From: a virus | Taxonomy: Duplodnaviria; Caudoviricetes | Direction: 5' to 3' (one strand) | Length of the DNA stretch: 64,000 nucleotides | IMG/VR virus record: IMGVR_UViG_3300032038_000010 | Location: 64,001-128,000 of that record | Shown: positions 641-63,383 of the stretch, piece by piece | How positions within the stretch are numbered: position 1 is the first letter of the stretch | How the letters are laid out: every line of letters begins with the position of its first letter | Notes under the pieces: model-generated | The model's database searches: none | Seen by the model: only the letters and a program-made list of their open reading frames with translations | Told to the model about the DNA's origin: nothing | Position numbers and translations under genes: made by a program

Positions 641-1393
641 TTATGAATCATCTGACTAATTTAAATCAGACATCCAATTTTTAACTTCTTTTAAATCTTG
701 TGCTCCAGCCATTTTAGCTTGAATATAAATATCAGAAGCCTGTTTCAAGTTAAAACGCTCGAACTCATCAAATAATTGATAAACACTATAATTTGCAAGA
801 GAGTTCAAATCTTTATTCTCTCCTACTGCTAAAATTGAAATGTATCTGCTAATGATTGTTACCTTTTGCCCATTATTTTTTATTTCACGCAATTTCTGAT
901 GCCGCTTACGAAACTTTTCAGCTAGCTTCTAGGCGGCCGCATTTGCCGGATCATACTATTCTGTGGCAGATTGACCAAATATACGGTCAAGGCAGAACAT
1001 TTCTTTTATTAGTTGTTGAAATTCATTATAATTATTAGCATCTATCGAAAATACTTCTTTATCATGTATTAACGCAATAGCTTGTGGAAGTATTTGTATA
1101 GTATAGTCAGGAAATAATAGTGCAAGGACCATTTTCATACAATTAACATTTTGTTGTGATTGAGGGTTCTTGTCCCTAACTATCGTCATTAATATATCAA
1201 AATTTGAAGCGTTTTCTAAACCACTTTTGTCCTCGTCAATTAATCTATCTTTTGTAAAAGTTAGAACTTGACAACCTGTAAAAAAATACTCTTCTCCTAT
1301 ATATCCAATTTCCTTAACTGATGGTTGATGTAAAGTAACTCTCCCTTGCGGAAAAGGCACATCATTATGGGCAAGCAAACCTAACTCATTCAT
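641..1393 (-). CDS. Virion morphogenesis protein (TAG read through at 956, 929, 656)
   Basis: ORFs 956..1393 and 656..892 are in frame and joined only by TAG codons; ends TAA at 641. Confidence 0.75.
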
Positions 1394-2010
1394 TTATTTA
1401 ATTGTTCCTTATCCTCAGAAAAATGGACTCCTCTATAGGAAAGAGTATACATTGATATATCTTGATTTAAAACAGCTTCATTACATCCGAGTAGTTTATA
1501 TTCTCCTACTCCAGATAATTTGATATTTTGATTAGATTTATATAATTGTTTATTTTTATTTGAGATACTATTTAATATGCCATCTATATACCCACAAATT
1601 TGAAGCGGGCGTACCTTATAATCATCAAGACACCAAGCATCCATATAACAAATTATATCGAAGTTAATAGTGTAGTCCAAAAACTCTGGATTTGCAGATG
1701 GGGCAAAATTATCAAAAGAAAGAAGCATATATGCTTTAATAGCTTCATGCTCCCCTCTTTCAATCTTTGGATTTAATCTAATATATCCATCTTTAATCAT
1801 CTTACCAAGAGAATAATCATCAATTAATTCTTTATAATCTTCATTCTCTTCATCTAAGCAGTCTGGATTATGCACAAGCAATAGACGCTTTAATTTATCA
1901 CTATATGGTTTAGTTTCAATAAACAATAACTTCAAAATTTGTTCGGTGTCAGTGCTACAAGAGAGAAAAGATGAAAATAATGGCTTAACAGTAGTTAAAT
2001 CCTTTCTCAT
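1390..2010 (-). CDS. Putative tail-completion protein
   Basis: 206-aa ORF with SD in structural operon; function from position only. Confidence 0.5.
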   Translation of the reverse strand: MRKDLTTVKPLFSSFLSCSTDTEQILKLLFIETKPYSDKLKRLLLVHNPDCLDEENEDYKELIDDYSLGKMIKDGYIRLNPKIERGEHEAIKAYMLLSFDNFAPSANPEFLDYTINFDIICYMDAWCLDDYKVRPLQICGYIDGILNSISNKNKQLYKSNQNIKLSGVGEYKLLGCNEAVLNQDISMYTLSYRGVHFSEDKEQLNK

Positions 2011-2030
2011 AATTAGCTCCTTTTATCTCC

Positions 2031-3089
2031 TTAAACAGTAACAATAGAAACATGAATTGAATTGTCACCATTTATAATGTCAAAACCTTTACGATAAGTC
2101 TTTGTATAAATTACTTCAAGATTTAAATTATTTCCATCAATAGTATAAGAAACTAATTCATCAATAGGAACAGAACCACCTGACTTTAAAGTCCATGCGG
2201 CGGCCGGCGCTCCGACTACACTATAGGTCGCAGTGTCATACGGCGCGAGTGTATCTGGCCCTTCGAGACGAATCTCAGGGGCGGCCGCTTCTTCTTCATC
2301 CTTTTGCTTAATAACATCATCAGTATTAGTATAAGTTTCTTTTAATGCAACTCTAATAATACCAGTTTCTTTATTACTTGAACTAGCTCCATAATTATCA
2401 TTATATGCCTGGACTTCCCAAGGCTTACCATTAACATACACTCTATCAAATCTCTTGAAGAATTGAGTAGTAGTTGCGTCTTTTGTAATATAAAGGAGTT
2501 TAGTATAATTCATATTATTCCAAACTACACCCTTCTTTACATTCCAAAGAATTGATTTTTCATCTGGTCCTGTCGTCCATCCAAAATACTTATGTTCATT
2601 TCCATCGGCATCTACAATAGTAATCTCTTCATCTGCTTGCCGAATCTCTCCTCTAAAATAAGCAGTTTCTTCTGAATATTGCATATATACAATCCAATGT
2701 GTATCTGGAACCCACTCTTCTTTATTACCATGAATCCAAGTAAAAACAGTTCCATTATGAAAATCAGTTTCTAATAAATCTTGATTATCTTTTACTGGAT
2801 CAATACTTACACTATTCTCCTTGAATGGAATAGAAATAATTTTATCTTCATAATCAACTTTTAACTTATCATGATTAATTAAACACCTAAAATAACTGTT
2901 AGTCTGCGCATCTATAGGCTCAGCTGCGTTATACTTTTGAACGACCGCCGCTTGATAACTATAATATAATGGTTTCTTCATACTACGTAATTTATCTTCT
3001 CTCATACGAGTAAATTGATCGGACGAAACATCATCTCCATAGTAACCTATGCGCTTCTTCATTAAATCAAGACTATTCATTTTTAACAC
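2031..3089 (-). CDS. Putative head-closure/neck protein
   Basis: Long ORF in structural operon; function from position only. Confidence 0.5.
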   Translation of the reverse strand: MLKMNSLDLMKKRIGYYGDDVSSDQFTRMREDKLRSMKKPLYYSYQAAVVQKYNAAEPIDAQTNSYFRCLINHDKLKVDYEDKIISIPFKENSVSIDPVKDNQDLLETDFHNGTVFTWIHGNKEEWVPDTHWIVYMQYSEETAYFRGEIRQADEEITIVDADGNEHKYFGWTTGPDEKSILWNVKKGVVWNNMNYTKLLYITKDATTTQFFKRFDRVYVNGKPWEVQAYNDNYGASSSNKETGIIRVALKETYTNTDDVIKQKDEEEAAAPEIRLEGPDTLAPYDTATYSVVGAPAAAWTLKSGGSVPIDELVSYTIDGNNLNLEVIYTKTYRKGFDIINGDNSIHVSIVTV

Positions 3090-3393
3090 ATTCTTCCAAT
3101 GAGCTTAACAATGAAAGACACTCAAAGATTGTTCTCCGATAATTCATAAAATCTTCTTTTTCTGTCAAAGTAAACAATCCTTCAAGCTTGCTCAAAAGAG
3201 AAAAGAAAAGAGGTTGTTGTCCGACAAACAACCTCTGTATTCCAGACAATTCTTCCATTAATGTATTTAATGGCTTCGTCCAATCTGTGCCTTCTTCTCT
3301 CATAGGAAGTAATTTATATGTTTGATTAACAAGTCTTTTAAAACTATTTTCAATAGCAGAATCGTCTATATCTATATTATACTTAATAATCAT
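3073..3393 (-). CDS. Hypothetical protein in structural operon
   Basis: ATGA overlap with the read-through upstream gene; AAGGAG SD. Confidence 0.7.
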   Translation of the reverse strand: MIIKYNIDIDDSAIENSFKRLVNQTYKLLPMREEGTDWTKPLNTLMEELSGIQRLFVGQQPLFFSLLSKLEGLFTLTEKEDFMNYRRTIFECLSLLSSLEECVKNE

Positions 3394-3980
3394 TGGGGCG
3401 CATCTCCTTTCGTGGTTAGCATAACCGCAGGAGTCTACATAATCTTTCCAAATGTAGAATGATACACTCCATTAACATCTTTTATTCTGCGTTTATACAA
3501 TCTCTGTAAATGAAACCCTTCTCGTTCATAATCCTTTTTAAGCTGGAGTAGTTTCTGCATGTGGTTGGCCTGAGATGTAAATTTAAAGTCAGCTCCAGAA
3601 TACTTCATACGCACATTTTCAACAGAAGCAAGCTGTTGCCCAATCCAATTGACAATCATATATACAGCTAAAATGTTCTCTTCCTCTTCGGTAAGTTTAT
3701 GAGTAAAATAATACTCTATTTTAGGGGTATCCTCTTTCGGCTACTCTTCTTTAGTTGTATCATCTGCTGTTTTAGTTGTATCGTCTTCTGACTGTTTTTC
3801 TTCCTTGATATAATCTAAAGGGACACGAGGAAATTCAAATTTTTGAATTGCTACTCGCAATAGCTCAAACAACATTGCTTTAGTTTCATCCTCAGTCAAC
3901 TACATATACATATCGTCTGTAATCTGGTTTAAAAATAAATCATAAACTTGAGTAAAGGGCGTATAATCTTCATTCCCCAT
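3390..3980 (-). CDS. Putative head-tail adaptor (TAG at 3900, 3741, 3435)
   Basis: ATG 3980; continuous frame except three TAGs; TGA overlaps next ATG; ITDDMYM*LT and KYSGADFKFTSQANH. Confidence 0.75.
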
Positions 3981-3998
3981 ATTACACCCCTGTTCTTA

Positions 3999-4586
3999 TT
4001 AAGATTCTTTCTTTATAATCACGCGGCGGCCTTGCTTAGTAGCGTCTCCGACTCCAGCTTCACCCACCGTAACAGCGGCCGCACGTCTTTTAGGAGCTTC
4101 CGCCTTCTTCTCTTCGCCGTCAAATTTAGCATTATTAATCTTAATAGCAGAAGCCACATCAAATCCAATCTGATTATTAATAGCATCCATCTTGTTGGTA
4201 TCTGTCAAAGGAAGTGAAACTGCCATATCTTTAATCATATCAATTACACCCTGTGGGGCAAAATCAAGACAATCCTTGAACTGATCAAGACTACCTTCAG
4301 TCAAAAGATACTTAACTTCAGCTTCACCATAAAAATATTCTGGCATAGTTTCTTTTGTAATATCTGGAAGTAATGCTTTAATCGCTTCTTCATCCTTAAG
4401 AACAAGACAGTTACGCAATTCATACTCGCCGCCACGCTCAAAAGAAAGCTTTTCAAGTTCTTCAAATGTTACTTCCTTTGTTTCTCTCGGTTGGAATTGT
4501 CTCTTAACACCAAGATCAGCAATTTCATAGCCAACGCTTCCACTAGAACGATTAATTACCTTAATAAGTTTATTTTTATCAATCAT
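3999..4586 (-). CDS. Hypothetical protein downstream of capsid gene
   Basis: 195 aa; AAGGAG SD. Confidence 0.75.
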   Translation of the reverse strand: MIDKNKLIKVINRSSGSVGYEIADLGVKRQFQPRETKEVTFEELEKLSFERGGEYELRNCLVLKDEEAIKALLPDITKETMPEYFYGEAEVKYLLTEGSLDQFKDCLDFAPQGVIDMIKDMAVSLPLTDTNKMDAINNQIGFDVASAIKINNAKFDGEEKKAEAPKRRAAAVTVGEAGVGDATKQGRRVIIKKES

Positions 4587-6258: not shown

Positions 6259-7689
6259 TTAAATATTGTTCTGAATCTCTTCAACTGCTTTAATCCAGTC
6301 TGGAGTTGAATCAGAATCTGCATTTTCTAAATTAAAAGTTACAGAAGGATTTTCTTCTGTCTTATGATTATCATTTTCAGAAGTAGATGTTGAATCAAAA
6401 TTGACCTTTTTTCTATAGCAAATTACTGCTAATTTAGATTCAATTTCATCAAGAGAATACTTTCTCTTATTTTCAATTACATCTTTCTTATCTTCATCAG
6501 AAAGCATATAGAATTTAGCAATAAGTTCATCTTTCTTCTGATCATCAACAGAGTTCTTAAACTCTACAAGAGTTTCGTTCTCTGCTTTAAGAGCAGCAAA
6601 CTTATTAGTTAATTCTGATACTTGAGCTGCAAGTTTAGCATATTCTTCATCTGTATGTAAAGAGTTTTTAGATGCAGGCTTCTTCTCATCTTCCTTCTCT
6701 TCTTCAGAATTAGAATCGCTGTTATCATCATCAGAATTATCATCTGTGTTATCATCCTTCTTGTCATCTTCCTTATTAGCAAACTCTTCATTTGCCTCAG
6801 AAGCAACAGTAGATTCTACAGATGCTCCTTCTGTATCTTCTTGATTTTCTGTCATATTCGTTTGAACATTACTGTCCTGTGTTGCAGAAAAATTTTCATT
6901 ATCTGTAGTCTGTGCGGCCGCCCCTTCAGTAGGAGCACCAGTAGTAACATCTACAGTTGTATTAGTTTCAGTATTCACTGTATTTCCTCCTTGTAACGCA
7001 AACTCTAATTGTTTAACCATTGAATATAGAGTTTTCGTAAAATTATCATTTATGGAAAAAGTATTACTTACTTCTGGTGCAGTTACGCTTGATCCCTCGA
7101 AGCAAGGCTCTACATCATCACCTAAAATACATAACTTTGAAACTATTGCGTCATTTATAATAAAAAATTCCATACCAGATTTACTATCTTCTGCCCAATA
7201 TCCATCTAAAGAACTATTATCAAGTTCCATGGACTGCGGTTTCCCATCATCATCAAAAACCTTTTGAGCTTCAGGATACTGGCCTGTCCATAAATAACCA
7301 GTAGTCATCAAATAAGTTCTAGTGACTTGATTTCCAAAATCATCAGTCTCATTAAAATCTTTGAACCAAACTTCCGCATCAGTAGGCACAAATCCATATG
7401 GCTTAGTATCAGAACCAAGATGTAAACCTTCATCATCTAATGTTACTCTGTCGCCATGTCCCATGAAATCCTCTTTATTATCATTGTAATATCCAACAAT
7501 AGGATTTCCACGAAGTGTTAATGCCATCTTTTCTGCGGCGTCCTTATTAATAAAACTGCCGTTACGATTTTTTCCTAAATAGAAAACTTTAATCTCACAT
7601 TTAGAAATAAATGGAGAAACATCCAAAGGAGTTAAGTTTACAAATTGGACATTATCCATCGTAGCGACAGATGCGTGTGGTAAACTCAT
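6259..7689 (-). CDS. Prohead protease-scaffold fusion
   Basis: QSMEL and LCILGDDVEPCFEGS protease-type motifs, acidic linker, C-terminal coiled coil. Confidence 0.7.
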   Translation of the reverse strand: MSLPHASVATMDNVQFVNLTPLDVSPFISKCEIKVFYLGKNRNGSFINKDAAEKMALTLRGNPIVGYYNDNKEDFMGHGDRVTLDDEGLHLGSDTKPYGFVPTDAEVWFKDFNETDDFGNQVTRTYLMTTGYLWTGQYPEAQKVFDDDGKPQSMELDNSSLDGYWAEDSKSGMEFFIINDAIVSKLCILGDDVEPCFEGSSVTAPEVSNTFSINDNFTKTLYSMVKQLEFALQGGNTVNTETNTTVDVTTGAPTEGAAAQTTDNENFSATQDSNVQTNMTENQEDTEGASVESTVASEANEEFANKEDDKKDDNTDDNSDDDNSDSNSEEEKEDEKKPASKNSLHTDEEYAKLAAQVSELTNKFAALKAENETLVEFKNSVDDQKKDELIAKFYMLSDEDKKDVIENKRKYSLDEIESKLAVICYRKKVNFDSTSTSENDNHKTEENPSVTFNLENADSDSTPDWIKAVEEIQNNI

Positions 7690-9886: not shown

Positions 9887-10672
9887 ATGAAACGCTATGT
9901 ATTTTCAGATATACATGGTTCAAAAGACTTATGGAACCAAATAAAATCTTATGTAAATAAGGACGATTGGCTTTATTGTCTTGGAGATGTGATTGATCGC
10001 GGTCCCGCTGGAGTTGAAATTTTTCTAGATCTATACAAGAGACCAAATACAATCATACTGCGCGGTAACCACGAAGATATGGCGGCCGCAGCTGTCCCGC
10101 CACTTTTAGCTGGCACTGCGCAGATGGATGGTAAGTGGCTTAATGAACATACTAAGCATGGCGAAATAGAAAATACTTATGTATTAGATTGGTATAATAA
10201 TGGCGGTATTCTGACTTGGAGAGCTTTACAAAAATATTCAAAAGAAGAAATCCAAAAAATAAGAGATATATGGGCAACACTCCCAACTAGTTTTATAGTT
10301 TATGATGACCAGAATCATTGGTATTACTATCTAGATCATTGTGGCTTCACACCGAGCTCCCGCGCATATAGATTACCATATTGGGATCGTTTACACTTTG
10401 ATGATGAATGGGATGATTGGGCAGATGGAAAAAATGTAAGAATAATTCATGGTCACACTCCAGTGCAATCTTTTGAGTCTACCTTTTGCCCCAACGGATT
10501 TGTAAGATATACAACACTTCATCCAGAAGATGAGCGAATGATAAATTATATTCCGCAAATAGCTGTCTACTGCGGAGGTCATAAAGTTGATATTGATTTA
10601 GCTGCTATTGATAGCGGTCGCACAATGCTCTTAGATTTAGATAAATTTGAACCTATATATTTTACGACTTGA
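9887..10672 (+). CDS. Metallophosphoesterase (phage Ser/Thr phosphatase-like)
   Basis: SDIHG, GDVIDRG, RGNHE, HGHT motifs. Confidence 0.85.
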   Translation: MKRYVFSDIHGSKDLWNQIKSYVNKDDWLYCLGDVIDRGPAGVEIFLDLYKRPNTIILRGNHEDMAAAAVPPLLAGTAQMDGKWLNEHTKHGEIENTYVLDWYNNGGILTWRALQKYSKEEIQKIRDIWATLPTSFIVYDDQNHWYYYLDHCGFTPSSRAYRLPYWDRLHFDDEWDDWADGKNVRIIHGHTPVQSFESTFCPNGFVRYTTLHPEDERMINYIPQIAVYCGGHKVDIDLAAIDSGRTMLLDLDKFEPIYFTT

Positions 10673-12984: not shown

Positions 12985-14220
12985 ATGCAACACTATTTTT
13001 ATGATACTTGTGCATTATTAAATCATAGCAAAATGATTTTTGAACAATCAAAAGAAAAATTTTATATTAGTAATTTAACATTAAAAGAACTTGAAAATAT
13101 TAAAACTTCTTTTAATAAAGATGCTGAAATAAAATATAAAGCAAGAAGAGTGGCACAAGAATTAATTACTTATGAAGATAAATATGAAGTAATTAATTAT
13201 AAGCAAAGCTATGATGAACAATTAAAACAATACGATGTATTATCTGATAATATGGACAGTAGAATTATTTTAACTGCATTGGCAACAAAGGATTGTATCT
13301 TTGTAACTGATGATCTCTATTGTTCTCAAATTGCAAAATCCTTAAATATTCCTGTTAAATTTCTTTTTACAGAAAATGACAATTATAAAGGGTATACAAT
13401 TATTACTCCAAAGGATGAAGATGAAATGGCGTATACTTATAAGACCATTTTTGATAATCCATCTGAATTTAATTTAAAAAATCATGAATACCTTTTAATT
13501 AGAACAGATGAAGGTATCGTTGATAAATATATTTTAATTGACAATGAATTAGAAAGATTAACAGATTTTATTTCATTTGATAGCACCCAGTTTGGTAAGG
13601 TTAAAGCAAGAGACGCTTATCAAGCTATTGCTATGGATAGTTTAAGAAGAAATAAAATTACTGCATTGCGGGGACCCGCAGGGAGTGGTAAATCATATCT
13701 AGCTATGTCCTATCTTTTTAGTCAACTAGAACATGGAAAAATTGATAGAATTGTTATTTTTTGTAACACAGTCGCAACTAATGGCTCTGCAAAATTAGGA
13801 TATTACCCAGGAACAAAAGATGAAAAGCTGTTAGATTCACAGATTGGAAATTTTTTAACTAGTAAAGTGGGAGACCGCATCCAAGTTGAGAAATATATGG
13901 GTGAAGGACAAATTATTCTACTTCCAATGTCTGATATTCGTGGTTTTGATACTACTGGTATGAACGCTGGTATTTATATTACAGAAGCACAAAATATGGA
14001 TATTGAATTAATGAAGCTTGCTTTACAAAGAATTGGAGAAGATTCAATTTGTATTCTTGATGGTGATGATACTGCTCAGGTTGATTTAGGTATATATGCT
14101 GGATCAAATAATGGCTTGAGAAGAGTATCTCAAGTATTTAGAGGAGAAAATATATATGGAGAAGTAACACTTCCAAATATATATAGAAGCAAAATTGCAA
14201 AGATTGCACAGAAAATGTAA
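12985..14220 (+). CDS. phoH: PIN-PhoH (PhoH2-type) protein
   Basis: N-terminal PIN (YDTCAL...D...VTDD); GPAGSGKS, LGYYPG, IRG, EAQN, GDDTAQVD. Confidence 0.85.
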   Translation: MQHYFYDTCALLNHSKMIFEQSKEKFYISNLTLKELENIKTSFNKDAEIKYKARRVAQELITYEDKYEVINYKQSYDEQLKQYDVLSDNMDSRIILTALATKDCIFVTDDLYCSQIAKSLNIPVKFLFTENDNYKGYTIITPKDEDEMAYTYKTIFDNPSEFNLKNHEYLLIRTDEGIVDKYILIDNELERLTDFISFDSTQFGKVKARDAYQAIAMDSLRRNKITALRGPAGSGKSYLAMSYLFSQLEHGKIDRIVIFCNTVATNGSAKLGYYPGTKDEKLLDSQIGNFLTSKVGDRIQVEKYMGEGQIILLPMSDIRGFDTTGMNAGIYITEAQNMDIELMKLALQRIGEDSICILDGDDTAQVDLGIYAGSNNGLRRVSQVFRGENIYGEVTLPNIYRSKIAKIAQKM

Positions 14221-14228
14221 TCTTAATA

Positions 14229-14262
14229 TTAGCTCTAGGTGTAAAAGCCTAGAGCTAATTTT
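14229..14262 (+). terminator. Intrinsic terminator
   Basis: TAGCTCTAGG...CCTAGAGCTA followed by T tract. Confidence 0.65.
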
Positions 14263-14284
14263 TATACAAAAGGAGAACTAGTAT

Positions 14285-14719
14285 ATGTTATTATTCAGAA
14301 AGAAACAATATTACCAAAAACGTGCAAATAAAATGCGTAATACTCTTGAAAAATGGGATATTGAAAAAGAAACTCTTAAACAACAGGAAGAAATAAATCA
14401 TGAATACCAAGAAATTAAACAGATAAATGCAAAAAAGAAAATGGCTACATCTAAAGTTATTTTATTCTTATTTATAGGAATGTGTTTATTTGGTATGTTT
14501 TTAACGGGATGGGCTACAATTCAATCTGTAACTATAGCGGCCGCCCTTGGTGTTATGCCAGACTTCGCCCCTATTGTTGCATTTATTGGATCCGTAGTAG
14601 CTCCAATTATTCCAATCTTTAGATATTATCAAAAATCAGAAAATGAAAATACTAAAGGTGGAATTGTTTATGATTCAGTCATTTCTAATAATGAAGATGA
14701 CAGTAATGGAGTCGGTTAA
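14285..14719 (+). CDS. Holin-like membrane protein
   Basis: Two hydrophobic segments; directly upstream of amidase. Confidence 0.5.
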   Translation: MLLFRKKQYYQKRANKMRNTLEKWDIEKETLKQQEEINHEYQEIKQINAKKKMATSKVILFLFIGMCLFGMFLTGWATIQSVTIAAALGVMPDFAPIVAFIGSVVAPIIPIFRYYQKSENENTKGGIVYDSVISNNEDDSNGVG

Positions 14720-15823: not shown

Positions 15824-18795
15824 ATGGCTACTGATAAAACTCTATATACAGATAAATCGATCGAATCACTCAGCCCCTTAGAGTTCACCAGACTCAGACC
15901 TCAGGTGTATGCAGGTGACTGCTCATATAGCACACAGCTCCTGGTCGAAATTGTTTCTAACGCTATTGATGAGTTCCGACTTGGTCATGGTTCTAAAATT
16001 GAAGTTAATATAAATAAAGATATTGTTTATGTTCGAGATTATGGACAAGGTTTTCTTGTCAACTCAATGAGAGACGATGGTAAGACTGTCCTTGAAGCTG
16101 CGTTTAGTATATTAAATACATCTGGTAAATATCGTGATGATGGAACTTATGAAGGAACTTCTCTTGGTTCTTTTGGTATTGGTTCTAAAATTACGACTTT
16201 TCTTTCTCATCATACTGAAGTTGAAACTTGGAGAGATGGACAGACTGAATCAATAGGCTTTACAGAAGGCGTTTTTAATGGCGATCGCAAGGTCGGCCCT
16301 TCAAAAGAACCGAATGGAACATATGTTCGGTGGCAGCCTTCAGAAGAGTTCTTCACGCATACTGAAGTTGAAATTGATAAAGTAAAGACACTTTTTAATA
16401 CATTAGTTTGCCTTTGTCCTGGTTTAACAATTGAATTAGATTATAATGGAAAGAAAACTACTTATGTATCACAGCATGGTCTCAATGACCTTGTAGATGA
16501 GGCTGTGAAAGATAAGGAACTTATTTCAAATCGTTTTAATATGAATTTTGCAGAAGGCAAAAATAAGATGGATATGGTTCTTACATATACATCTAATTAT
16601 TCTTCTACCATTATTCCTTATGTTAATACAGGCCTTACTGAATCTGGCCAGCATATTACACAGGTCAAAACAACACTAACTCGTGTATTTAATAAATTCT
16701 TTAAAGAAAAGAAATGGCTTAAAAATAAAGATGAAAACTTAACAGGCGATGATATTCAAGAAGGAATGTATATTGTATTTAATATTACAGCTCCTAACGT
16801 TGGATATGACGCACAGGTTAAGTCAAGAATTACTAAAATTGATATGGCTCCATTTACTGGGATGTTATCTGAAAATCTTGAATATTGGCTTAATAACAAT
16901 GAAAAAGAAATTAAGCAGATATTTGATAAAGCAGCATCCGCAAAGAAAGCAAGAGAAGCTGCAAAGAAAGCAAGAGAAAGAGTTCGTGAACAAGGTAAGA
17001 AGAAAGAAAAAGCACTCAAGTTCGATTCTAAACTTGCAGATTGCTGGTCTAAAGACCGCTCTAAATGTGAAATTTATGTTACCGAAGGTGATAGCGCTAG
17101 TGGTAATTTGAAAACTGCTCGTAACAATGAATTTCAAGCAGTATTACCTGTCCGTGGTAAAATTCTTAACGTAAGGAAAGCTTCACTTGAGAAAATTCAA
17201 AAAAACGCAGAGATTATGACAATGATTGAAGCTTTTGGTCTTAAAGTTGATTTAAAGACAATGAAATTGACATATGACCCAGCTGATTTGAGATACGACA
17301 AGATCATTATTGAATCGGACGCAGATGTAGATGGTGAACCAAGTGTTAGTGCCAATGAAAAACTTTACGCTTAATCAGGCGGGTAATGCTTTTGGGCAAA
17401 ACATATTTATGTGATCCATACGGATTTCATATAAATATGAAAGAGAAAAAGCATTGCTAACGGGGCATCCTAAACTATTAAGCATGGAAATCCCGTGGGA
17501 AACTTATATTTATCCATTTCTCTTTCAATTAAATATAAAAATGGGGGAGAAATACAATGATTGGTATTTATAAAATTATTGATAAAGATGACCCAACAAA
17601 ATTTTATGTTGGTCAATCAAATGATATTGAAAGGCGTATTAAAGAACATATCCAAAAATCATATAAACAATCACGAATCCCATTTGATGATTATATTAAT
17701 CAGAGAGGGAAAGAAAACTTCACTTTTGAAGTTTTAGAAGAATGTTCATTAAATGAATTAAATGAAAAAGAAAGATATTGGATACAAAAATTAAATGCAA
17801 CATCTTCTGGTAACAAATTTAATGGTGGTACTACTAATGTAATTGGAGAAAATAATCCAAGAGCAAAATTAACTGAAGAAGATGTAAAAATTATCCGTAC
17901 TGCTTATAAAAATCATTTAAAACAAAAAGATGTATACGAACAATTTAAAGATAAAATTTCATTTGGATATTTTCAAAATGTGTGGCAGGGAAAATCTTGG
18001 TCACATATAATGCCTGAAGTTTTTACAAAAGAAAATAAAAAATATTATATATACCAAAATAGTAATGGCTCTCAAGGAGCAAGCGCACAATTTACTGACG
18101 ATGAAGTTATAACAATTCGTCAAAGATATGTAAATGAAAGCGCAAAACAAATTTACGAAGATTATAAAGATCGAGTAAAATATCAAACTTTTCAAGCTTT
18201 ATTATGGGGAAGAAGTTATAAAAATCTTCCAATCTATAAAAAGAAAGAAAAGAAATGGATAAATATTTGAACCTGTATCGACTATCTCCTTTGCCTTCTG
18301 GGCGGGAGAGTAGGGCTGCTATTGATACGCAGTTCGAAATGGTTTCCTCTCTATCATGAGAGTAAAAGATAGTCAGTGCTAATGGAAACATTAGATAACA
18401 CGGCCCATATCAAGAACCTATTTTATACCTTTATCTGGACTTTCTGTCCTCAACTAATCCTGGATGGTCATGTCTACGCAGGCGTGCCGCCGCTTTACAA
18501 GATTACAGAAACAAAAGATAAGTATGTATATCTTAAAGATGATGCCGCACTTATTGAATACAGAAATAATCATAAAGGTAAAAAGTACCAGGTTAATCGC
18601 CTCAAGGGACTAGGGGAGATGTCCGCAGACGAGACCTCTATCCTCGTAGAGGCCGATCAGAGAATTATTAGACAGGTTACAGTGGCAGACATTGATATTG
18701 CTAATAAACTGTTTGATGATTTAATGGGAACGGCAATTCTTCCTCGTAAAAAATATATTCAAGAACATTCAAAAGAAGCGACGTATAATGTTTAA
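15824..18795 (+). CDS. gyrB: Type IIA topoisomerase B subunit; exons 15824-17335 and 18403-18795
   Basis: NAIDE, DYGQG, EGDSA, PVRGKILN; splicing restores DADVDG|AHIKNL; RLKGLGEM. Confidence 0.9.
17336..18402 (+). mobile_element. Group I intron in gyrB
   Basis: Exon ends in U, intron ends in G; GCTAACGGGG, AATCCCGTG, GTATCGACTA and AAGATAGTC core-like elements; splice restores the conserved motif. Confidence 0.9.
17557..18270 (+). CDS. Intron-encoded GIY-YIG homing endonuclease
   Basis: GIYKI...FYVGQS...RR..EH...EKERYWI. Confidence 0.9.
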   Translation: MIGIYKIIDKDDPTKFYVGQSNDIERRIKEHIQKSYKQSRIPFDDYINQRGKENFTFEVLEECSLNELNEKERYWIQKLNATSSGNKFNGGTTNVIGENNPRAKLTEEDVKIIRTAYKNHLKQKDVYEQFKDKISFGYFQNVWQGKSWSHIMPEVFTKENKKYYIYQNSNGSQGASAQFTDDEVITIRQRYVNESAKQIYEDYKDRVKYQTFQALLWGRSYKNLPIYKKKEKKWINI

Positions 18796-28625: not shown

Positions 28626-28701
28626 TTAATCACTATTTTATGTAGAGGGGATTATTGATAAAATAATCCTCTCATATTTTTCTATGAAAGGATGACTAAT
28701 A

Positions 28702-29736: not shown

Positions 29737-29848
29737 ATTCTTTAATATATACTAGATTTTTTTAAGAGGAAGATAGATAATATCTTCCTCTTTACTTTTT
29801 TATAAAAATATGATATAATAAATATAAGAATGAGGTGATATATTTATT

Positions 29849-46100: not shown

Positions 46101-46430
46101 AATGCAGGATGTATTACTTATGTTGAACTTGATAGTGGAACTAAAAATAATCTTGAAGCTCTTGAAACAATAGTAAATTATGCTATGGATAAAGACATTC
46201 CATATTTTGCTATTAATGTTCCTGCTGATACCTGCCTTGACTGCGGATACCAAGATGAAATTAATGATGAATGTCCTAAGTGCGGCAGCCACAATATTCA
46301 AAGACTTCGTAGAGTTACTGGATACTTAACTGGTGACTATAAAACTGCATTTAATAAAGGCAAACAACAAGAAGTAGAATTAAGATATAAACATTCAAAT
46401 AAATTAGCAAAGGATTTTTGGAAGAAATGA
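43173..46430 (+). CDS. nrdD: Anaerobic ribonucleotide reductase; exons 43173-44083 and 45038-46430
   Basis: ATP cone, HDLD, HNC; splice restores HNL|NTLQSRSGNQLPF; MGCR; TPAE; CxxC pairs; RVTGY glycyl motif. Confidence 0.93.
44084..45037 (+). mobile_element. Group I intron in nrdD
   Basis: AAACGGGGAA, GACAATCCCGTG, CTAACGACTA, AAGATATAGTCT; terminal G. Confidence 0.9.
44209..44883 (+). CDS. Intron-encoded GIY-YIG homing endonuclease with NUMOD-type repeats
   Basis: VYIGIT...RW..G.GY; repeated E.KxKIS motifs. Confidence 0.88.
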   Translation: MYIVYQHKNKINGKVYIGITMQDPERRWRHGEGYKSSPHFYAAIQKYGWDNFEHNILFENLTKEEACQKEQELITEFNSINRKYGYNSTSGGDVFTMNDETKQKISQAMMGNKNGLGHPCSEEKKKKISEAQKGKKLTEEHKQKLSEAAKKRHTPCSEKAKENIRKASHKKPVYCEELNQVFESVQECSRQLGIPATNISKLCNGRGKTLKGYHLKYYDDTINA

Positions 46431-49320: not shown

Positions 49321-52011
49321 TTAACTAAAGAATAACATATCTCCAATATTATGGCTATGTCTTTTTCTTTTTTTATCTTCCTCCTGCTTTATATAATATA
49401 GTCCATATATAAAAGCAGAGAATTTATCTTTAGGTATTCCTCTATTACTTTGTTTCAGAATAATATTAACGCCTTCATTATCTTCAACAAGATTAAGCAT
49501 TTGCTATTTTAATCTAGTTGTCAAATTGAACGGTACAAGATAAGTATTTCGCTCATCTGAAGTCATCGTCTGTCCGCGCTTAGTCCCCATCAATTTAAGT
49601 TTAGCCTGCTGTTCATCAATTAAGAATTTAATCTTACCACTGCTCATTTGAGTTTGTGCATAAGAATACGCTTCTGTATTAATAGGAGCATTAGCCTTCA
49701 TTAAGAACATAGCGTCATTCTCAAAGTCTGGGCCTTTTGCTTTTTTATACTGATTAGCAACATCTTCATTAGTTCCGCCCTCAACCCCAAATGGAGGTAA
49801 ATTATCTCCAGTCTCAGGATCAATTTGAGCTTTTGTCATAAAATCAATCAAACCGACACCAAGACCATTAGCATCAATAGATAATATTCTAGCATGATAT
49901 TTATAATACAATTTCTTTAATTTAACTGCTTGTACTTCAAAGTCTTCTGCTTCATAAGTATATATATTAACTAATGATTTAAGCGCCGCCCCTTGCGGCT
50001 GAGGATAAACTTTAAATACACAAGCTTCTGTAGTACATCCGATACGGCCTACATCAACCCCAATTACATAATAAGCATTTTTAGCATTGCGCGAACTGTA
50101 CTCATATTCAGGCTGATTTAATGTTCTATGTTTATCAAACTTCTCTGCTGAATAAAAAGCATTTTCTGCATCACCAGACCAAATTGAACGATATTCTCGA
50201 TCAAAAGAATCTTCATTATATGTACCTTGTAATTTTAATTGATCTACAAAGTCTTCATCAAGAAGTCCTTCATTAACTGGTGTTTCATAAGTACCGCCAA
50301 GAATCATATATTTATCTGGTTCAATAACTGATTGAACAAAGATTTCAATTAGCTTGTCATAAGCAAAAGAGTTTTTCCAACCTGCGGTAGTAATATAAAT
50401 TTGCGATTTATTAGGTAATTCAGTTCTATCTCTTGAACCGTCAGGTAAAAGTCTATCTACGTTAGTAGTAGGAATAAGAACTTCATTAAGAATATCTCCA
50501 TCAATTAATACACATTCCTCAAGGAGAAGACTATTACGACGTTGGCCTCTAGAACTTTCTCTTGCTGCAAGAATGTCAATTTCTGAACCGTTTTTAAATA
50601 CATAATGAACATCATCTTTTGTGTGCTTAGTTTTACCACGTTCCCAGTTAATTTCATTGGCAAGAGGTGGAATCAGCCGACAAATTTCATCTATCTTAGC
50701 GATGGTAATGGAGGCAGCCTGTTCTTTCAGGATTGTTATCATAAGGCTTTTTATCCTTATTTCTTATACTTGTTATTCGTATAAGCTCAGCATATCTTTT
50801 CATCTACGACTTTACGTTTAGATGTCGCGGCCTCGTGGAGGGATTATACTTGTCAATCTCACCCTCTATGCGTTGCCCCTGACTCCTTATCTGCTAAAGA
50901 AGCCTTCGGTTCGGATTAGCATTTCAGCTTTCCCGCTTAATTCCGCGATTTAAAGGTTTTATATATTAAATTTCTTTAATATTGGGCAAATTAATATTTT
51001 TATGATATTGACTACCATTAGTAATAAAGTCTTGATAATGTTCATATTTTCTATCTAAATAAATATTACTATCTTTATATAAATAAGTAAGAAAATTATA
51101 AACATCTATTAGACTACTAAAAACATATCTTTTTGCTCCGTCTTCTCTATGGCAAATAAAAATTTTATTATTTTTATTAATATCTAAATCTAGGGCATTT
51201 AAACTGCCTTTAATAAAGTCTTCTGTTCCAATCCATCCAACTTGAAAACAACTAGACGTATTAGTAAACCATCCATCTCCATCAAAATATCCTCTTAAAA
51301 AATGTCTCGTTAATTCAGAAGGAACTTGTTCCTAAGTCGGATATTTTAAAATTAATGATTTTTTAGGAACACAGCCTTTATTAATTAAATCTTGTTTACA
51401 TTTATCACTTCTAAAACTCATTCGATATGATTTAGAAGATTCTCTATACCCAATTTTATTAGATATTCCCATAAAATTTCTAAATTTTTCAATTTGATGT
51501 AAATCTTTTTCTGCTAATCCCAATTCGATTTTATCTTCTTTAGAACCAACAGAACCATCTGCGTAAAGAAAACCAAGCCAATATGCTTTTTCTTCTGTGT
51601 CAATATGCTCAAATTGTGTAAGGACGTTTTTTGTACTCATTTCGTACTCCTCCTGTAAAAATATTAAATAAAAAGTTTACCCCCTGTACTAATCGCGGCG
51701 TGCTACCCTGGGTAGAACACTGCTCTTAGCATCAAGCCCATCATTGATAAGAAAGATTTAGAGAAAGCACGAGGGAAAGTAGCATACACAAAGCGATGCC
51801 GCATGATCACTCTTAAATAAACTCTTTGATAATAGAAGAATTTAAAAGTTGAATCTTCGCCTTTTATTTGATCAACAAATATATCTGGATAAGCTCGATA
51901 AAAAGAAATCAAATTCCGCATTTCAGGAAGAATTGCTCTAATTCTATCTTCAGTTACGTCTTGCTGGACAATCTTATCATCAGATAGAGACAATAAATTA
52001 GCTAGACTCAT
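49321..52011 (-). CDS. Terminase large subunit; exons 52011-51679 and 50727-49321; TAG at 51703 and 49504
   Basis: PRAFSKS Walker A variant; splice restores TGG|KEQ; LLEE Walker B; GVDVG, IDANG and KDKFSA nuclease motifs (the last only after read-through). Confidence 0.88.
50728..51678 (-). mobile_element. Group I intron in terminase gene, ORF located 5' of the core
   Basis: Exon GGGU pairs with GCCC after the ORF; AATTAAGCGGGAAAG, CTAATCCGAACC, GCAACGCATA, AAGATATGCTG; terminal G. Confidence 0.85.
50966..51640 (-). CDS. Intron-encoded LAGLIDADG endonuclease, 224 aa (TAG at 51332)
   Basis: AYWLGFLYADG and FLRGYFDGDG motifs lie on either side of the TAG. Confidence 0.88.
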
Positions 52012-53273: not shown

Positions 53274-53279
53274 TAATTA

Positions 53280-54425
53280 TCAAACTCCTTTCACTAATTT
53301 AATTTGCTTATGCTTATTTTTTGCATTGCGGCAATCTTTACATATAGAATAAAAGCCATCTTTACTTGTCTTATTTTTTGAAAAGAACATACTGTGAGCT
53401 AATTTAATTTGACCACAGCGTGAGCATCTCTTCCATTTACCCTTTTCTACATTGGTATAATACCAGGTCAAATAATCTTTTTGAGCGTGGTCCGCAATCA
53501 TTTTAGGTATTTTTTTGCGCCAGAGAGACGAAAGATATTCAATGGAGTGCCGCACACCAAAATCTCGTTGAAGAAGGCTTTGTATTTCTTCATTAGTCTT
53601 ACCATCAATTTTATAAATAACTAAATCATAATACATAGGATATTCTTCTTCAAGAGTCTAATCAATAAGATTTTCTAAATCAATAATTGCCCATTTAGCA
53701 TCACTATTGACTTTATCCCAACTATCCATTTTTAGTTTAGAATAATGACATAGCACTGCGCTTACTACATCTGGGTTGAGGAAACTGAAGCCTCTAACCT
53801 ATAGAGTTCCATCTTCTTTAATTTTAATATCTTCTTCCCAAGACATAGTAGAGAAGCTCTTGATGCCATTTGAATAAGGCATTGTAGGATGATAGGCTGC
53901 TTTAAGTACATATTGGTCTTTCCGCATTTCTATCATTTGCTTTTTCAATAAATATTTCTTTTTACCTGTTGCTAAATCGCATTGCTTTTCAATTTCCGCA
54001 ATACTATCTCTAAGTTCTTTTAGCCCAGGTATTTCTGCGACATCTGTTTCAGTAATTCCAATTTTAGGTGTGAAGATAATATTTTTATCATTTGCAATCA
54101 TATTATAAATACCATCTTCGCCATTTTCAAAAGTAGCAACTAAACCTTCAAAAGACATTTCACGCTTATTGACAGTTACCATTCTATTCTAAGTAATAAT
54201 CTTCTTTTGTTTACGTTCTTCTTTGTCCATAGCAAATACTATATAGTCAGATAAAATTTCTAAGTAACGTGGTGTTAATTTTTCTGAAGGAGTTTGCTCA
54301 ATAATTTTTTTAACTAATTCATTGCGGGCAGCCGCTGTCTAGAGCTTATAGTCTAGTTTAAGTGGTTGATTAGACTCGTCTAATTCCGCATTAGACGGGG
54401 CCGCCGCATTATTATATTCTTCCAT
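53280..54425 (-). CDS. Putative transcription regulator with HTH-like segment and C-terminal Zn finger (TAG at 54339, 54189, 53799, 53658)
   Basis: AAGGAG SD, ATG 54425, 381 codons with only TAG interruptions; TNEEIQ...YLSSLW; CSRC...CKDC. Confidence 0.65.
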
Positions 54426-54603
54426 GCTTAAGTACTCCTTTTATGTTTATTAGCCTCCAACTTCAGGTAAGCCTTATTTCAATTCTATACTTATAGTATA
54501 CCAGAAAATTTTTGAATTGTCAAGACTCGATTAAACACTTTTGACTTGAAAGTTACAAAAAATTATTATATAATATTTATATAAAGTAAAGGAGATAATA
54601 ATT

Positions 54604-54780
54604 ATGAGTAAATATATTGATCCAAATAATCCTGGGTATGAAGATCCAAGAGAACAATCGATTGGATGGCGTGGCGAAGGGCGGCCGCTTGGGATTAAAA
54701 CAGAGGCGTGCCCAGTTGATGGACATTATTGTGAGCAGCCGCAATGTGAGAACTGCAATTTTGAAGAGGTGTCTCAATGA
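54604..54780 (+). CDS. Small Cys-rich protein (58 aa, below track cutoff)
   Basis: AAGGAG SD; TGA overlaps next ATG. Confidence 0.55.
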   Translation: MSKYIDPNNPGYEDPREQSIGWRGEGRPLGIKTEACPVDGHYCEQPQCENCNFEEVSQ

Positions 54781-55214
54781 TTATTACATTAACTGGTCAT
54801 AGACCGCCAAGATTACGGGGACAAGAGAAAGAAATCAAAACTTGGCTAAAAAATATTTTACATTCTTTTGGAGAAAATAATATTTGCATTTCTGGGATGG
54901 CTGCAGGGGCAGATCAATTATTTGCGTATACAGCAATAGAAGAAAACAATAAATTATGGTGCGCTTGGCCTTATCATAAAAAGAATCGAGATTATGCAGA
55001 ATATTTAGAAGATCATGCTGATAATATTATTTTTGTAAATCAAGATTATAGTCCTGATTGTTATACCATAAGAGATAAATTTATGGTAGACCAAGCTGAT
55101 ATTGTATTAACTGTTTGGGATGGGAAACCATGGGGCGGCACTTATAATACAATAAAGTATGCAGAACAGCAAAATAAAACAATCATTGAATATAGAGGAT
55201 TAAAAAATGAGTGA
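54777..55214 (+). CDS. SLOG-superfamily (YspA/DUF1273-like) protein
   Basis: TGHRP, SGMAAGAD, RD.FMVD, VWDG..GGT..T..YA. Confidence 0.8.
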   Translation: MIITLTGHRPPRLRGQEKEIKTWLKNILHSFGENNICISGMAAGADQLFAYTAIEENNKLWCAWPYHKKNRDYAEYLEDHADNIIFVNQDYSPDCYTIRDKFMVDQADIVLTVWDGKPWGGTYNTIKYAEQQNKTIIEYRGLKNE

Positions 55215-55941
55215 AGCATTAAAAGCGCGGGCGGCCGCTCGTCACCAAATGATACTGGACCGATTTGCGGGAGCGACGGCCGCAAGTATTAAATCAAGTA
55301 AAATTTATAAAGAAAATAGTGTATTTATTCCAAAGGGTAGCTGGGTTAATACACATACTGTCTTAGCTGATAACAACTCTGTGGGGGCGATTGATAGATA
55401 CTCCGAAGGGCGGACTGCAGTCCTTAATTTTGCGAGCTTCCGCAATCCAGGCGGCGGTTACATGCAGGGAATGATGGCGCAGGAAGAGGCACTATGTTTC
55501 GCATCTAATCTTTATGAGGTTTTATCTAATTTTGAAGATTATTATGAAGAAAATCGAAAAGATTTAAATGGCGGGATGTATTATGATAGAGCTATTTATT
55601 CGCCTGATATAATCTTTATGTATCATAATAAACAAATTAAGTGCGATGTTATTACCTGTGCGGCGCCCAATTTAAGAAACGCTCAAGGAGATAGAATAAG
55701 GAATCATAAGGTATTGGTCCAGCGCGCGCACTTCATTAATCAAATAGTTGAAGATAATAATGTTGATACATTAATTCTTGGCGCATATGGATGCGGAGTT
55801 TTTAGACAGAATCCTTATGAAGTTGCGGAAATATTTAAGAATGAATTTAAAAATACTACGGTAAAGAAGATTATTTATGCGGTTCCCGCAAATTTAAATG
55901 AAGAAAATTATTATGCTTTTGAAGAGGTGTTAAATAAATGA
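55207..55941 (+). CDS. Microbial-type PARG macrodomain (TIGR02452/DUF2263-like)
   Basis: VLNFAS..NPGGG...AQEEALC, ITCAAPN, LILGAYGCGVF.QNP. Confidence 0.88.
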   Translation: MSEALKARAAARHQMILDRFAGATAASIKSSKIYKENSVFIPKGSWVNTHTVLADNNSVGAIDRYSEGRTAVLNFASFRNPGGGYMQGMMAQEEALCFASNLYEVLSNFEDYYEENRKDLNGGMYYDRAIYSPDIIFMYHNKQIKCDVITCAAPNLRNAQGDRIRNHKVLVQRAHFINQIVEDNNVDTLILGAYGCGVFRQNPYEVAEIFKNEFKNTTVKKIIYAVPANLNEENYYAFEEVLNK

Positions 55942-61362: not shown

Positions 61363-61626
61363 CCTTCGCTCTTCGGAGGGTAACAATTGAATAATGTCAA
61401 TAGGCAAGGTTCACAAAACCTTGCCTATTTTTTTGTGCAATTTTTTACTTGACAAATGAACTGCGGCGTGCTATAATGGCGGCCCGCGGTTGATCGCCGC
61501 GGGCTGTTTTTTGTCAAGTAGTAATAGTTCACAAATTTTCCATCCAAATTTTGTGCAATTTTACCTCTTGCATTTATCCCGTAATGTGCTATAATTAAAT
61601 CATCAAAAGGAAAGAGGTAAACAGTT

Positions 61627-61857: not shown

Positions 61858-61907
61858 CAAACTTTCTATATTATGATATTATAATTATAGAAAGAGAGGT
61901 AAGAGTT

Positions 61908-62360: not shown

Positions 62361-62417
62361 CAAAACCGCCGCAAGGCGATATAATAAAATCACAAAAGAA
62401 CAAAAGGAGGTTCTAAT

Positions 62418-62558
62418 ATGACAGCAGTATCTTATGAAATCTACAATGCGTTCGGAACTGTGGTTGAGGTTGTAAAGTCTTGGGAACTTGCAAAGGCAAG
62501 AGCAAAGGCAGTTGGAGGAGCTTACAAAATTATTTATACGCCAGTTAATGCATTTTAA
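62418..62558 (+). CDS. Small early protein
   Basis: AGGAGG SD; 46 aa. Confidence 0.65.
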   Translation: MTAVSYEIYNAFGTVVEVVKSWELAKARAKAVGGAYKIIYTPVNAF

Positions 62559-62765
62559 TGCGGGCGCCCGCTCAGAAATCACTCCTGGGCGGGTTTTTTG
62601 TGGCTCGCGACCGGGCGCCGCGAGCCATTCTTTCATTATAGCATACCTATACCACTTTTGTCAATGGTAAATTTGCACAAAAAATTTCTTAATTTAATCC
62701 CAAAATTGTGCTTGACATTTTTCTTATCTTTTGTTATAATGTATTCAGAAAGTGAGGTAAGGCTT

Positions 62766-63014
62766 ATGAACAATATTAAACTCATTAAAAGCGATAATAA
62801 TTATAGATTAGAGTTATGGGGCGCAAGCACTAAACACCCTGATGTTGTTTATGATATGGAAAATGACATCAAAGAAGGGCGGTTTTGCCTTTGCCCTTAT
62901 GAAGAGAGCAAAGAGTGGAACTTATACCAGTGGGTTCTCTACTGCGCAAGCCGTACAATGTGGAGAACAACAGCGATTCAGTTAGTAGAGTATGCGAATA
63001 TTTTACTGAATTAA
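62766..63014 (+). CDS. Small early protein
   Basis: Promoter and GAGGT SD. Confidence 0.65.
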   Translation: MNNIKLIKSDNNYRLELWGASTKHPDVVYDMENDIKEGRFCLCPYEESKEWNLYQWVLYCASRTMWRTTAIQLVEYANILLN

Positions 63015-63383
63015 TTTTAAGAGGGCGGGCGACCGCTCTCTTTTTTGTCGGTCTGTGTGCGGCCGCCCACAGACCGAAATTTTATTATAGCACACCTAGC
63101 GACATTTTGTCAATAGGAATTTTGCACAAATATTTTCTTGATTTGATCCTGATATTTGTGCATTATTACCAGTTGACTTTTACAGCTGACCGCGTTATAA
63201 TGTATTCAGAAAGTGAGGTAATATTTATGAAGATTATCCCTATTGTAATTAAGCGCAAACTAAAAACAGAAGTCAATCTTGATGAATTAAGAAAAAACTT
63301 TTAGAAAAAAATCAAAAAATGCTTGACAAGGCTTCAATTATGTGTTATACTAAAGTCATCAAATGAAAGAGAGGTTAAAATCC

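Follow-up and report, generated by a model that had tools for sequence, protein, structure and literature searches.

A HIP1-like iterated palindrome in a large, TAG-recoded tailed phage and its close relatives

We examined a palindromic word, the NotI octamer GCGGCCGC, in a 64,000-nucleotide stretch of viral DNA (the window), which comprises bases 64001–128000 of one 136,945-bp contig of IMG/VR (record IMGVR_UViG_3300032038_000010; 34.7% GC). The contig is linear according to IMG/VR and 89% complete according to CheckV. It comes from a large tailed phage, with portal, terminase and a long tail module. Its replication genes include DnaB, an adjoining primase (window 31914–33005), a split DNA polymerase III (Pol III) alpha subunit, and gyrase A and B; also present are an NAD-dependent ligase, a RecJ-like exonuclease, a RuvC-like resolvase, an anaerobic ribonucleotide reductase, and many homing endonucleases of the GIY-YIG, HNH and LAGLIDADG families. 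Taking TAG as a sense codon raised the coding fraction from 83% to 92%, and this reading was therefore adopted for every frame analysis. The nearest named relatives are distant: Geobacillus virus E3, Phage Phass-1 and SPbeta-like phages, at approximately 33–36% identity over RecJ. Megablast against 50,697 phage records found no near relative.

An initial annotation of the window had counted 17 exact copies of GCGGCCGC, and all 17 are present where it placed them. Most read as Ala-Ala-Ala: those at 933–940 (minus-strand gene 641–1393), 2281–2288 (minus-strand gene 2031–3089; relatives have QST or QTQ there), 4075–4082 (minus-strand gene 3999–4586), 6914–6921 (minus-strand gene 6259–7689, in a variable stretch rich in indels), 14537–14544 (gene 14195–14719), 24218–24225 (NAD-dependent DNA ligase gene, 22730–24691), 33250–33257 (RecJ-like exonuclease gene; common to relative G001), 38840–38847 (gene for the PHP part of Pol III alpha; WNK or LIK in relatives, ungapped) and 55231–55238 (PARG-like gene, 55207–55941). 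The site at 10082–10089, in a metallophosphoesterase gene (9887–10672), lies in a run of four alanines that two relatives keep by means of other GCS codons. Three sites read as Gly-Gly-Arg: 22598–22605 (gene 22186–22773), 35675–35682 (superfamily 1 helicase gene, 34987–36159) and 43555–43562 (gene for the N-terminal part of NrdD; same codons in relative G001). Two belong to triple words: GCGGCGGCCGC at 24428–24438 in the ligase gene, which joins one extra GCG to the NotI core at 24431 and encodes Ala4, and GCGGCCGCCGC at 30325–30335 (gene 29849–30373), which reads Arg-Pro-Pro and whose octamer is common to relative G002. The site at 54681–54688 falls in a doubtful short open reading frame (ORF) or spacer (54577–54777). 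The last, at 63059–63066, is the centre of a longer perfect inverted repeat with 10-bp arms, TCGGTCTGTG and CACAGACCGA, in a GC-hairpin region. In the right-end spacer region, GCGGCCGC centres such longer perfect inverted repeats at window 63048–63077 and genome 129085–129125.

Related forms are also dispersed through the window. The direct double word GCCGCCGC, a one-off variant of the core, occurs at 2197–2204 and 4023–4030 on the minus strand and at 18486–18493 and 54400–54407 on the plus strand. The spaced variants GCGG-N-CCGC that had been reported alongside the octamer were all recovered: N4 at 13668–13679, 23570–23581, 27476–27487, 35466–35477 and 54324–54335; N3 at 20919–20929 (in gyrA, reading Ala-Ala-Ser-Ala) and 55879–55889; N1 at 31507–31515 and 39017–39025; and N6 at 28593–28606.

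Over the whole contig GCGGCCGC occurs 36 times, approximately once per 4 kb (0.26 per kb). No other 8-mer of the genome is so strongly over-represented (z = 51), and every other palindromic 8-mer made of G and C alone has at most three copies there. One hundred dinucleotide-preserving shuffles of the window gave a mean of 0.05 copies and a maximum of 1, against the 17 observed. Markov expectations for the contig were 0.11 (order 0), 0.18 (order 1), 0.48 (order 2) and 2.9 (order 3). At orders 4–6 the expectation climbs to 16–36, and it comes near the observed count only because nearly every copy of the 6- and 7-mers concerned lies in the sites themselves; these orders absorb the signal and were not used as a null. 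Synonymous-codon shuffling of genes of at least 100 codons, with protein and codon usage held fixed, gave 0.94 ± 1.0 copies (maximum 4 in 300 runs; 30 observed). A first-order codon-pair model trained on the phage's own genome, which is circular and generous to the null, gave 4.8 ± 2.1 (maximum 10 in 200 runs; 32 observed), and the same kind of model trained on sister phages, relatives without the palindrome, expected 0.24 for those 32. The enrichment thus survives synonymous shuffling and codon-pair models, under which the initial annotation had allowed that it might vanish. It amounts to approximately 75–200-fold; a GC-rich palindrome one to two orders of magnitude above Markov and codon-aware expectation is one of the features by which highly iterated palindromes (HIP) are recognized.

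Architecture and placement of the word family

The signal lies at the DNA level, as had been proposed from the several reading frames of the sites (Ala-Ala-Ala, Gly-Gly-Arg, Arg-Pro), and those frames hold. With TAG as sense, 24 of the 36 sites read Ala-Ala-Ala (GCG GCC GCN), seven read (x)-Gly-Arg, four read Arg-Pro and one is intergenic, which leaves 12 of 36 outside the Ala frame. The constituent pentamer, GCSGC, shows little preference for strand: GCGGC and GCCGC number 162 and 170 overall, and 161 and 149 on sense strands. Its density is 2.5 per kb in genes vs. 1.9 per kb in spacers, and is even across both gene arms. A Chi-like strand or orientation bias was accordingly rejected, there being no strand skew. 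The flanks of the octamer are symmetric (K-GCGGCCGC-M, with G or T preceding and C or A following), and no common sequence was found beyond one base on either side. Gaps between palindromic words had coefficients of variation of 0.6–1.2 in four genomes, none significantly different from random, Poisson-like placement, so regular spacing was rejected as well; the genomes are too short for testing periods of 10–90 kb. The word is scattered randomly over both gene arms and the spacers.

Where the word falls in genes, it occupies places at which the protein can bear it, read mostly as Ala-Ala-Ala, and has made this tripeptide more common in the proteome: the observed/expected ratio of Ala-Ala-Ala is 5.1–8.0 in the phage and its NotI-rich relatives vs. 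1.5–3.2 in sister phages. GCC and GCG codons are favoured ahead of another Ala codon. The only alanine tRNA of the phage is tRNA-Ala(UGC), so tRNA supply leaves the use of GCG and GCC unexplained and was rejected as its cause.

Orthologous positions often carry quite different residues with no gap, such as CAAAL in Pol III alpha vs. CWNKL or CLIKL in relatives, and EAAAP vs. DQSTD and QQTQD elsewhere. Genomes that are approximately 90% identical differ at sites by one or two point changes (GCGGCAGC, GCGGCTGC, GCAGCTGC). From the ungapped alignments and these small changes it follows that the words arise and decay by substitution in tolerant parts of proteins; the word is gained and lost by point substitution, not by insertion. 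The same has been reported for HIP1 (PMC13756078). Dispersal through genes and spacers with substitution-driven spread, a second feature of the HIP class, is therefore found here. Mobile GC-rich mini-elements (miniature inverted-repeat transposable elements, repetitive extragenic palindromes, Rickettsia palindromic elements and mitochondrial GC clusters) were rejected, given the lack of shared flanks beyond ±1 base and the equal length at many orthologous positions.

The octamer is built from two overlapping pentamers and stands upon a wider background. GCSGC is in excess 3–5-fold in most relatives, 1.9-fold in one, and approximately 2.8-fold in Phage Phass-1. The octamer might thus be a by-product without a role of its own, produced by a clade-wide GCSGC excess together with Ala-Ala codon context; the breadth of that excess and the preference for GCC or GCG before another Ala codon both agree with this. 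The ways in which pentamers are combined make it quite unlikely. In 472 kb from the genomes rich in the octamer (the NotI clade) there are 108 copies of GCGGCCGC, 59 of GCGGCGGC and 57 of GCCGCCGC, and only 5 of GCCGCGGC, the fourth pentamer overlap, so that, counting the two direct forms together, one of three overlap classes is missing (5 copies vs. 108 and 116). Sister phages with equal pentamer excess have 1–4 copies of each double word in 588 kb and are essentially without them, even where GGCC is not avoided. In the contig genome 63 double words were seen vs. approximately 3 predicted by pentamer independence. Every triple word (17 + 17) includes the palindromic NotI core, and pure runs of GCG or GCC number zero. 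The self-trained codon-pair model reaches only 4.8, and constraint, described below, acts far more strongly on double words than on single pentamers. Double words thus form their own layer, separate from the pentamer excess.

At offset 6, only the convergent palindromic form GCGGCNGCCGC is frequent (12, 4, 16 and 9 copies, vs. 0–1 for direct forms), and among Ala4 runs this palindromic form alone is enriched. Triplet-repeat slippage was rejected, since pure (GCC)3 and (GCG)3 runs are missing, whereas triples that mix the two and contain the core are common. Around the core there are plentiful one-off variants at synonymous positions. The architecture is that of a palindromic core with a shell of synonymous one-off variants upon a wider pentamer background, and GCGGCNGCCGC, GCCGCCGC/GCGGCGGC and the pentamer GCSGC are of the same word family as GCGGCCGC.

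The spaced forms bear on whether a nucleic-acid structure is being selected, such as a GC clamp or hairpin in single-stranded DNA or RNA serving as a priming, pausing or stability signal. GCGG-N(s)-CCGC occurs 36, 7, 4, 25 and 13 times for s = 0–4, where approximately 1.1 is expected per spacing, and is enriched at s = 0, 3 and 4. The N3/N4 enrichment would suit a hairpin, as would a phage-encoded primase adjoining DnaB and the longer perfect hairpins of the right-end spacer region, which have the octamer at their tip (63059 in the window, genome position 129100). Selection for hairpins is nonetheless weakened because the reverse order, CCGC-N(s)-GCGG, which folds equally well, has only 0–2 copies per spacing and no enrichment. 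The commonest form, lacking a spacer, cannot fold into a hairpin; the Ala reading frame largely accounts for the N3 and N6 classes (frame 0 in 18 of 23 genic N3 and 4 of 4 N6 cases); and sense and antisense are alike. We consider structural selection very unlikely.

Other palindromes are treated differently. Phage genomes normally lose short palindromes to cutting by restriction enzymes, and all the phages compared here strongly avoid other palindromes; in the contig genome these are GATATC (3 vs. 45 expected), GAATTC (5 vs. 33) and CCGG (29 vs. 143), as well as ACATGT, CTCGAG, GGTACC and GGATCC. CGGCCG is the only palindrome enriched in all four NotI-clade genomes tested. Two sister genomes are nearly without GGCC (9–10 vs. 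approximately 120 expected) and GATC (0–5 vs. approximately 400), and in the sister phage G011 GATC numbers 0 vs. approximately 390 and GGCC 9 vs. approximately 76; sister phages that do not avoid GGCC also lack the palindrome. Of 165 GGCC in the contig, 81 are in the half-words GCGGCC or GGCCGC, and the other 84, vs. approximately 181 expected, are about twofold under-represented; GGCC may be mildly avoided except within the iterated word. The differing avoided sets suggest unmodified DNA under different host restriction repertoires. That a palindrome has accumulated here, is conserved at silent sites and is paid for in protein changes speaks for a positive function on phage DNA.

Distribution, silent-site constraint, methyltransferases and hosts

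We found GCGGCCGC in excess in relatives of the phage. Five related IMG/VR contigs, with DnaB at least 70% identical, have 18, 28, 13, 5 and 8 sites, and none of the reversed control word. Remoter relatives, three of them 93–95% complete, have 0, 0, 0, 1 and 3 sites, and the published, distantly related Phage Phass-1 has 1 in 50 kb. The enrichment is a trait of one lineage of large AT-rich rumen and gut phages. A 23-kb contig (G010:C37) of a metagenome-assembled genome (MAG) labelled Anaeroplasmatales has 8 sites in 16 kb, denser than in the window's phage; it is probably a further clade member mis-binned into a bacterial genome.

Cloning linkers commonly contain NotI sites, so that linkers or chimeric joins might have introduced the octamer during library preparation or assembly. 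Six sites are common to the independent metagenome assemblies G003 and G005, and three of three to G001 and L008; because independent assemblies share sites, an artefact is excluded in practice. The sites are also in frame within conserved genes, with no indels, and are surrounded by a graded family of variants; we give this origin next to no credence.

Constraint was examined in two independent genome pairs, 90% and 95% identical, by scoring four-fold codons with conserved first two bases for the same third base in both genomes. GCS codons in double words kept the third base in 94% (90% pair) and 100% (95% pair) of cases, and those in single pentamers in 64% and 92%, respectively. Other GCS codons, including those before G, kept it in 45–49% and 59–62%, all other NNS four-fold codons in 52% and 65%, and W-ending codons in 78–80% and 87–91%. 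Double words differ from other GCS codons with p = 2e-6 (one-direction Fisher test). Silent-site G/C therefore decays fast in this AT-rich genome unless it is within a word, and the words are protected from the genome's drift of G/C to A/T. Conservation between related genomes beyond neutral, a third feature of the HIP class (Xu et al., 2018), is thus found at synonymous G/C, and this constraint within words supports the HIP1-like, DNA-level part of the initial annotation.

The other part linked the word to methyltransferases. Bacillus phages phi3T, SPbeta and rho11s encode multispecific C5 methyltransferases that target GGCC plus GCNGC, and GCGGCCGC does hold one GGCC and two GCNGC, as had been pointed out. 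The proposed tie was not borne out: PF00145 (C5 methyltransferase) had no match in the contig, in three NotI-rich relatives or in two sister genomes 93–95% complete, so that the phage-encoded C5 cytosine methyltransferase of the phi3T/SPbeta type was not found in this phage or these five relatives. PF01555 (N4/N6 methyltransferase), PF03852 (Vsr), PF01702 (TGT/DpdA), PF12183 (NotI) and PF09504 (Bsp6I, GCNGC) likewise had no match in the contig. A cognate methyltransferase in the same genome, another mark of the HIP class (Elhai, 2015), was accordingly not found by PF00145 or PF01555 in the contig, nor by PF00145 in the five relatives. What stands of the initial annotation is the HIP1-like iterated palindrome at the DNA level, and what does not is its phi3T-type enzyme.

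Scans of approximately 80 ORFs with Pfam and PHROG profiles returned replication, nucleotide-metabolism, homing-endonuclease and structural genes, and no candidate reader. Two winged helix-turn-helix proteins, at 25016 and 61012, had been put forward as candidate binders of the motif. Neither has an informative family match, and the 25016 protein is further weakened as a specific reader because sister phages without the palindrome carry it too.

A host enzyme could in principle take the place of a phage one. Under Elhai's model for HIP, a host methyltransferase specific for GCSGC, GGCC or CGGCCG, with methyl-directed or very-short-patch (VSP) repair bias, would act as a ratchet that builds up a functionless word. 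To our knowledge, the effect of VSP repair on word frequencies in E. coli is far below 75–200-fold, which counts against this. In its favour, an alternate HIP of Cyanothece PCC 7822, GCsGC, has been documented together with a GCsGC-specific methyltransferase (PMC4390886). Synonymous one-off variants are abundant around the core, as in HIP1 genomes; a restoring repair bias would give the same apparent constraint; and the restriction of the trait to one clade with clade-specific tail-module ORFs is consistent with a host switch. Against the model stand the lack of a C5, N4/N6 or Vsr match in the phage and of a C5 match in the five relatives, and the near-absence of GCCGCGGC, unexpected from a process specific for GCSGC. 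The host chromosome should also carry the word. Overall this ratchet seems to us a rather unlikely source of the palindrome.

On that last point several sets of bacterial genomes were counted. Five MAGs (1.1–2.3 Mb) that include related phage contigs have 4–13 sites each, nearly all on phage-like contigs. The 121 genomes of one candidate host family have 0–7 sites each, the maximum being in a bin with phage fragments. In 401 Bacilli genomes neither the 10-mer KGCGGCCGCM nor the 8-mer was in excess over the reversed control. No enrichment of the word was thus seen in the MAG bins or in approximately 520 sampled Bacilli genomes, and because the sampled candidate hosts lack the word, a host-wide form of the methylation or repair footprint that the initial annotation had entertained becomes less likely. 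Within the genomes sampled, it is a word of the phage rather than a bacterial one. The presence of cell-wall hydrolase genes suits a host with a wall, most probably a Firmicute.

A candidate recognition word and its known counterparts

We favour, with less than even confidence, the reading that selection maintains GCGGCCGC as a recognition word on duplex DNA and that this word is specific to one lineage of large TAG-recoded rumen and gut phages. Our grounds are that it is symmetric, occurs regardless of frame and strand, is constrained at silent sites, comes at a cost to proteins and is absent from sampled bacteria. A factor with twofold symmetry would read GCGGCCGC on double-stranded DNA, and would probably belong to, or cooperate with, the phage's own machinery for replicating, recombining or packaging DNA. 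Host DNA almost wholly lacks the word, which would then set phage DNA apart and serve as a watermark, as has been proposed for Chi, DNA uptake sequences and HIP1. A stronger form, which we hold to be fairly improbable, takes the word family for a virus-borne 'self' watermark that the host chromosome lacks, by which phage machinery tells phage from host DNA and for which the proteome has been bent toward extra Ala-Ala-Ala. Such a watermark might be read by the replisome of DnaG-type primase and DnaB, by a factor of recombination or packaging, or by one that protects DNA against a phage nuclease. Besides the primase, individual candidates for a reader are the proteins next to DnaB (27696–30373), small conserved proteins at 25016 and 60958, and two clade-specific ORFs of the tail module.

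Several observations weigh against a recognition word. A mismatch-repair bias that restores the word would also resemble constraint. No reader appeared among the contig's genes, with the methyltransferase, Vsr, TGT, NotI and Bsp6I families unmatched; the contig being 89% complete, a gene could be missing from the searches. When ORF presence and absence were compared with four sister genomes, only two small tail-module ORFs (genome 37171–37563 and 39877–40170) were specific to the NotI clade, and an apparent link to the NAD-dependent ligase vanished on comparing 30 DnaB-centred loci. Related phage contigs are binned in MAGs labelled Bacilli, Erysipelotrichaceae, Acholeplasmatales, Anaeroplasmatales, Clostridia and even Methanobrevibacter, labels so varied that binning does not fix the host, for which it is weak evidence. 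Exact octamers in close pairs were kept in 18 of 29 cases vs. 13.7 expected, which is not significant alone; constraint is clear only at the codon level and for the pooled word family. At 69% nucleotide identity few site positions are still common and most have turned over. This turnover and the Poisson-like spacing mean that neither position nor regular spacing is the selected property; the genomes maintain words, and their number, but not the exact sites.

HIP1 (GCGATCGC, of cyanobacteria; PMC5861425, PMC4390886, PMC13756078) is the closest known system. It too is an 8-bp palindrome with the same outer GCG...CGC, differing from GCGGCCGC in the two central bases alone (AT in HIP1, GC here). 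Over-representation is similar or higher (approximately 75–200-fold here, 15–300-fold for HIP1). Both occur in genes and spacers, spread by substitution without indels, are mostly read as Ala-x-Ala, have overlapping and one-off variants, and show evidence of constraint between related genomes. Unlike HIP1, whose class is defined on the cellular (cyanobacterial) chromosome, the present word is carried by a virus, its contig having the portal, terminase and tail genes of a phage, and sampled candidate hosts were not found to have it. Its density is lower, at approximately 0.26 per kb vs. up to approximately 1 per kb or more for HIP1. HIP1 has GATC- and CGATCG-specific methyltransferases, whereas no cognate enzyme was found here, and periodic spacing, which belongs to the HIP class after Xu et al. 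(2018), was not detected here. The alternate HIP of Cyanothece PCC 7822, GCsGC (Elhai, 2015; PMC4390886), is the very pentamer that is over-represented here across a wider phage family. It differs in co-occurring with a GCsGC-specific methyltransferase, none being seen here, and the phage clade adds a second layer, of the palindromic 8-mer and 11-mer, with GCCGCGGC near-absent.

The SPbeta-like phages are distantly related in their replication genes (RecJ/YorK approximately 33% identical). We know of no report that phi3T, SPbeta or rho11s enrich their GGCC or GCNGC sites.

Other dispersed words differ in symmetry. Chi, read by RecBCD or AddAB, and the DNA uptake sequences of competence machinery are dispersed 'self' words that are asymmetric, strand-oriented and enriched in the host; Firmicute Chi sites have a GCGG core. 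They resemble the present word in being short, GC-rich and dispersed at high density; GCGGCCGC differs in being palindromic, without strand skew and not enriched in sampled bacteria, and so lacks what distinguishes a Chi-like word. The stoperators of cluster A mycobacteriophages are dispersed repressor sites, approximately 25–35 per genome, 13 bp long, asymmetric, mostly intergenic and oriented with transcription. Like GCGGCCGC, they amount to tens of copies of a short word spread across the genome of a phage; GCGGCCGC differs as a palindrome that is unoriented and mostly inside genes. A search of the literature found no report of an iterated palindrome of the GCGGCCGC type in phages.

Cyanobacteria have been known since the 1990s to carry highly iterated palindromes, on whose function there is no agreement. 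The phage version is useful for its small genome, a cognate methyltransferase not found, a host counterpart not found among sampled genomes, and sisters without the trait. It separates the phenomenon from methylase-linked models, and lineages with and without the word are natural contrasts for finding a reader. The word is also a simple signature for spotting the clade in rumen and gut metagenomes, and contigs mis-binned in bacterial MAGs. Were the watermark true, a virus would for the first time have been assigned a functional HIP-type element, and the 30-year-old question of HIP1 would gain a tractable system.

Other features of the contig

Three genes of the window are split by GIY-YIG homing endonucleases, which are free-standing genes: gyrB (N part 15824–17374, endonuclease 17557–18270, C part 18322–18795), Pol III alpha (PHP part 37841–39121, endonuclease 39454–40098, remainder 40499–42787) and nrdD (43173–44090, endonuclease 44209–44883, then 45210–46430). 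An HNH endonuclease gene (18884–19783) precedes gyrA, and a LAGLIDADG gene lies at 50966–51640.

The left arm of the contig encodes, at genome 2930–3796, 8410–9498, 9871–10800 and 10810–11712, a FolD-like methylene-tetrahydrofolate dehydrogenase/cyclohydrolase, Rnl1-like and Rnl2-like RNA ligases, and DUF7666 proteins, one of the latter with pentapeptide repeats; this set of metabolic and RNA-repair genes is uncommon for a phage. A reverse transcriptase gene (RVT_1; genome 31843–33078, minus strand) adjoins the tail-fibre region and is possibly part of a diversity-generating retroelement. In the window, a protein with a PARG domain (microbial-type poly(ADP-ribose) glycohydrolase; 55207–55941) adjoins a DprA/SLOG-like protein (54777–55214), a pair that may provide counter-defence against ADP-ribosylating host systems.

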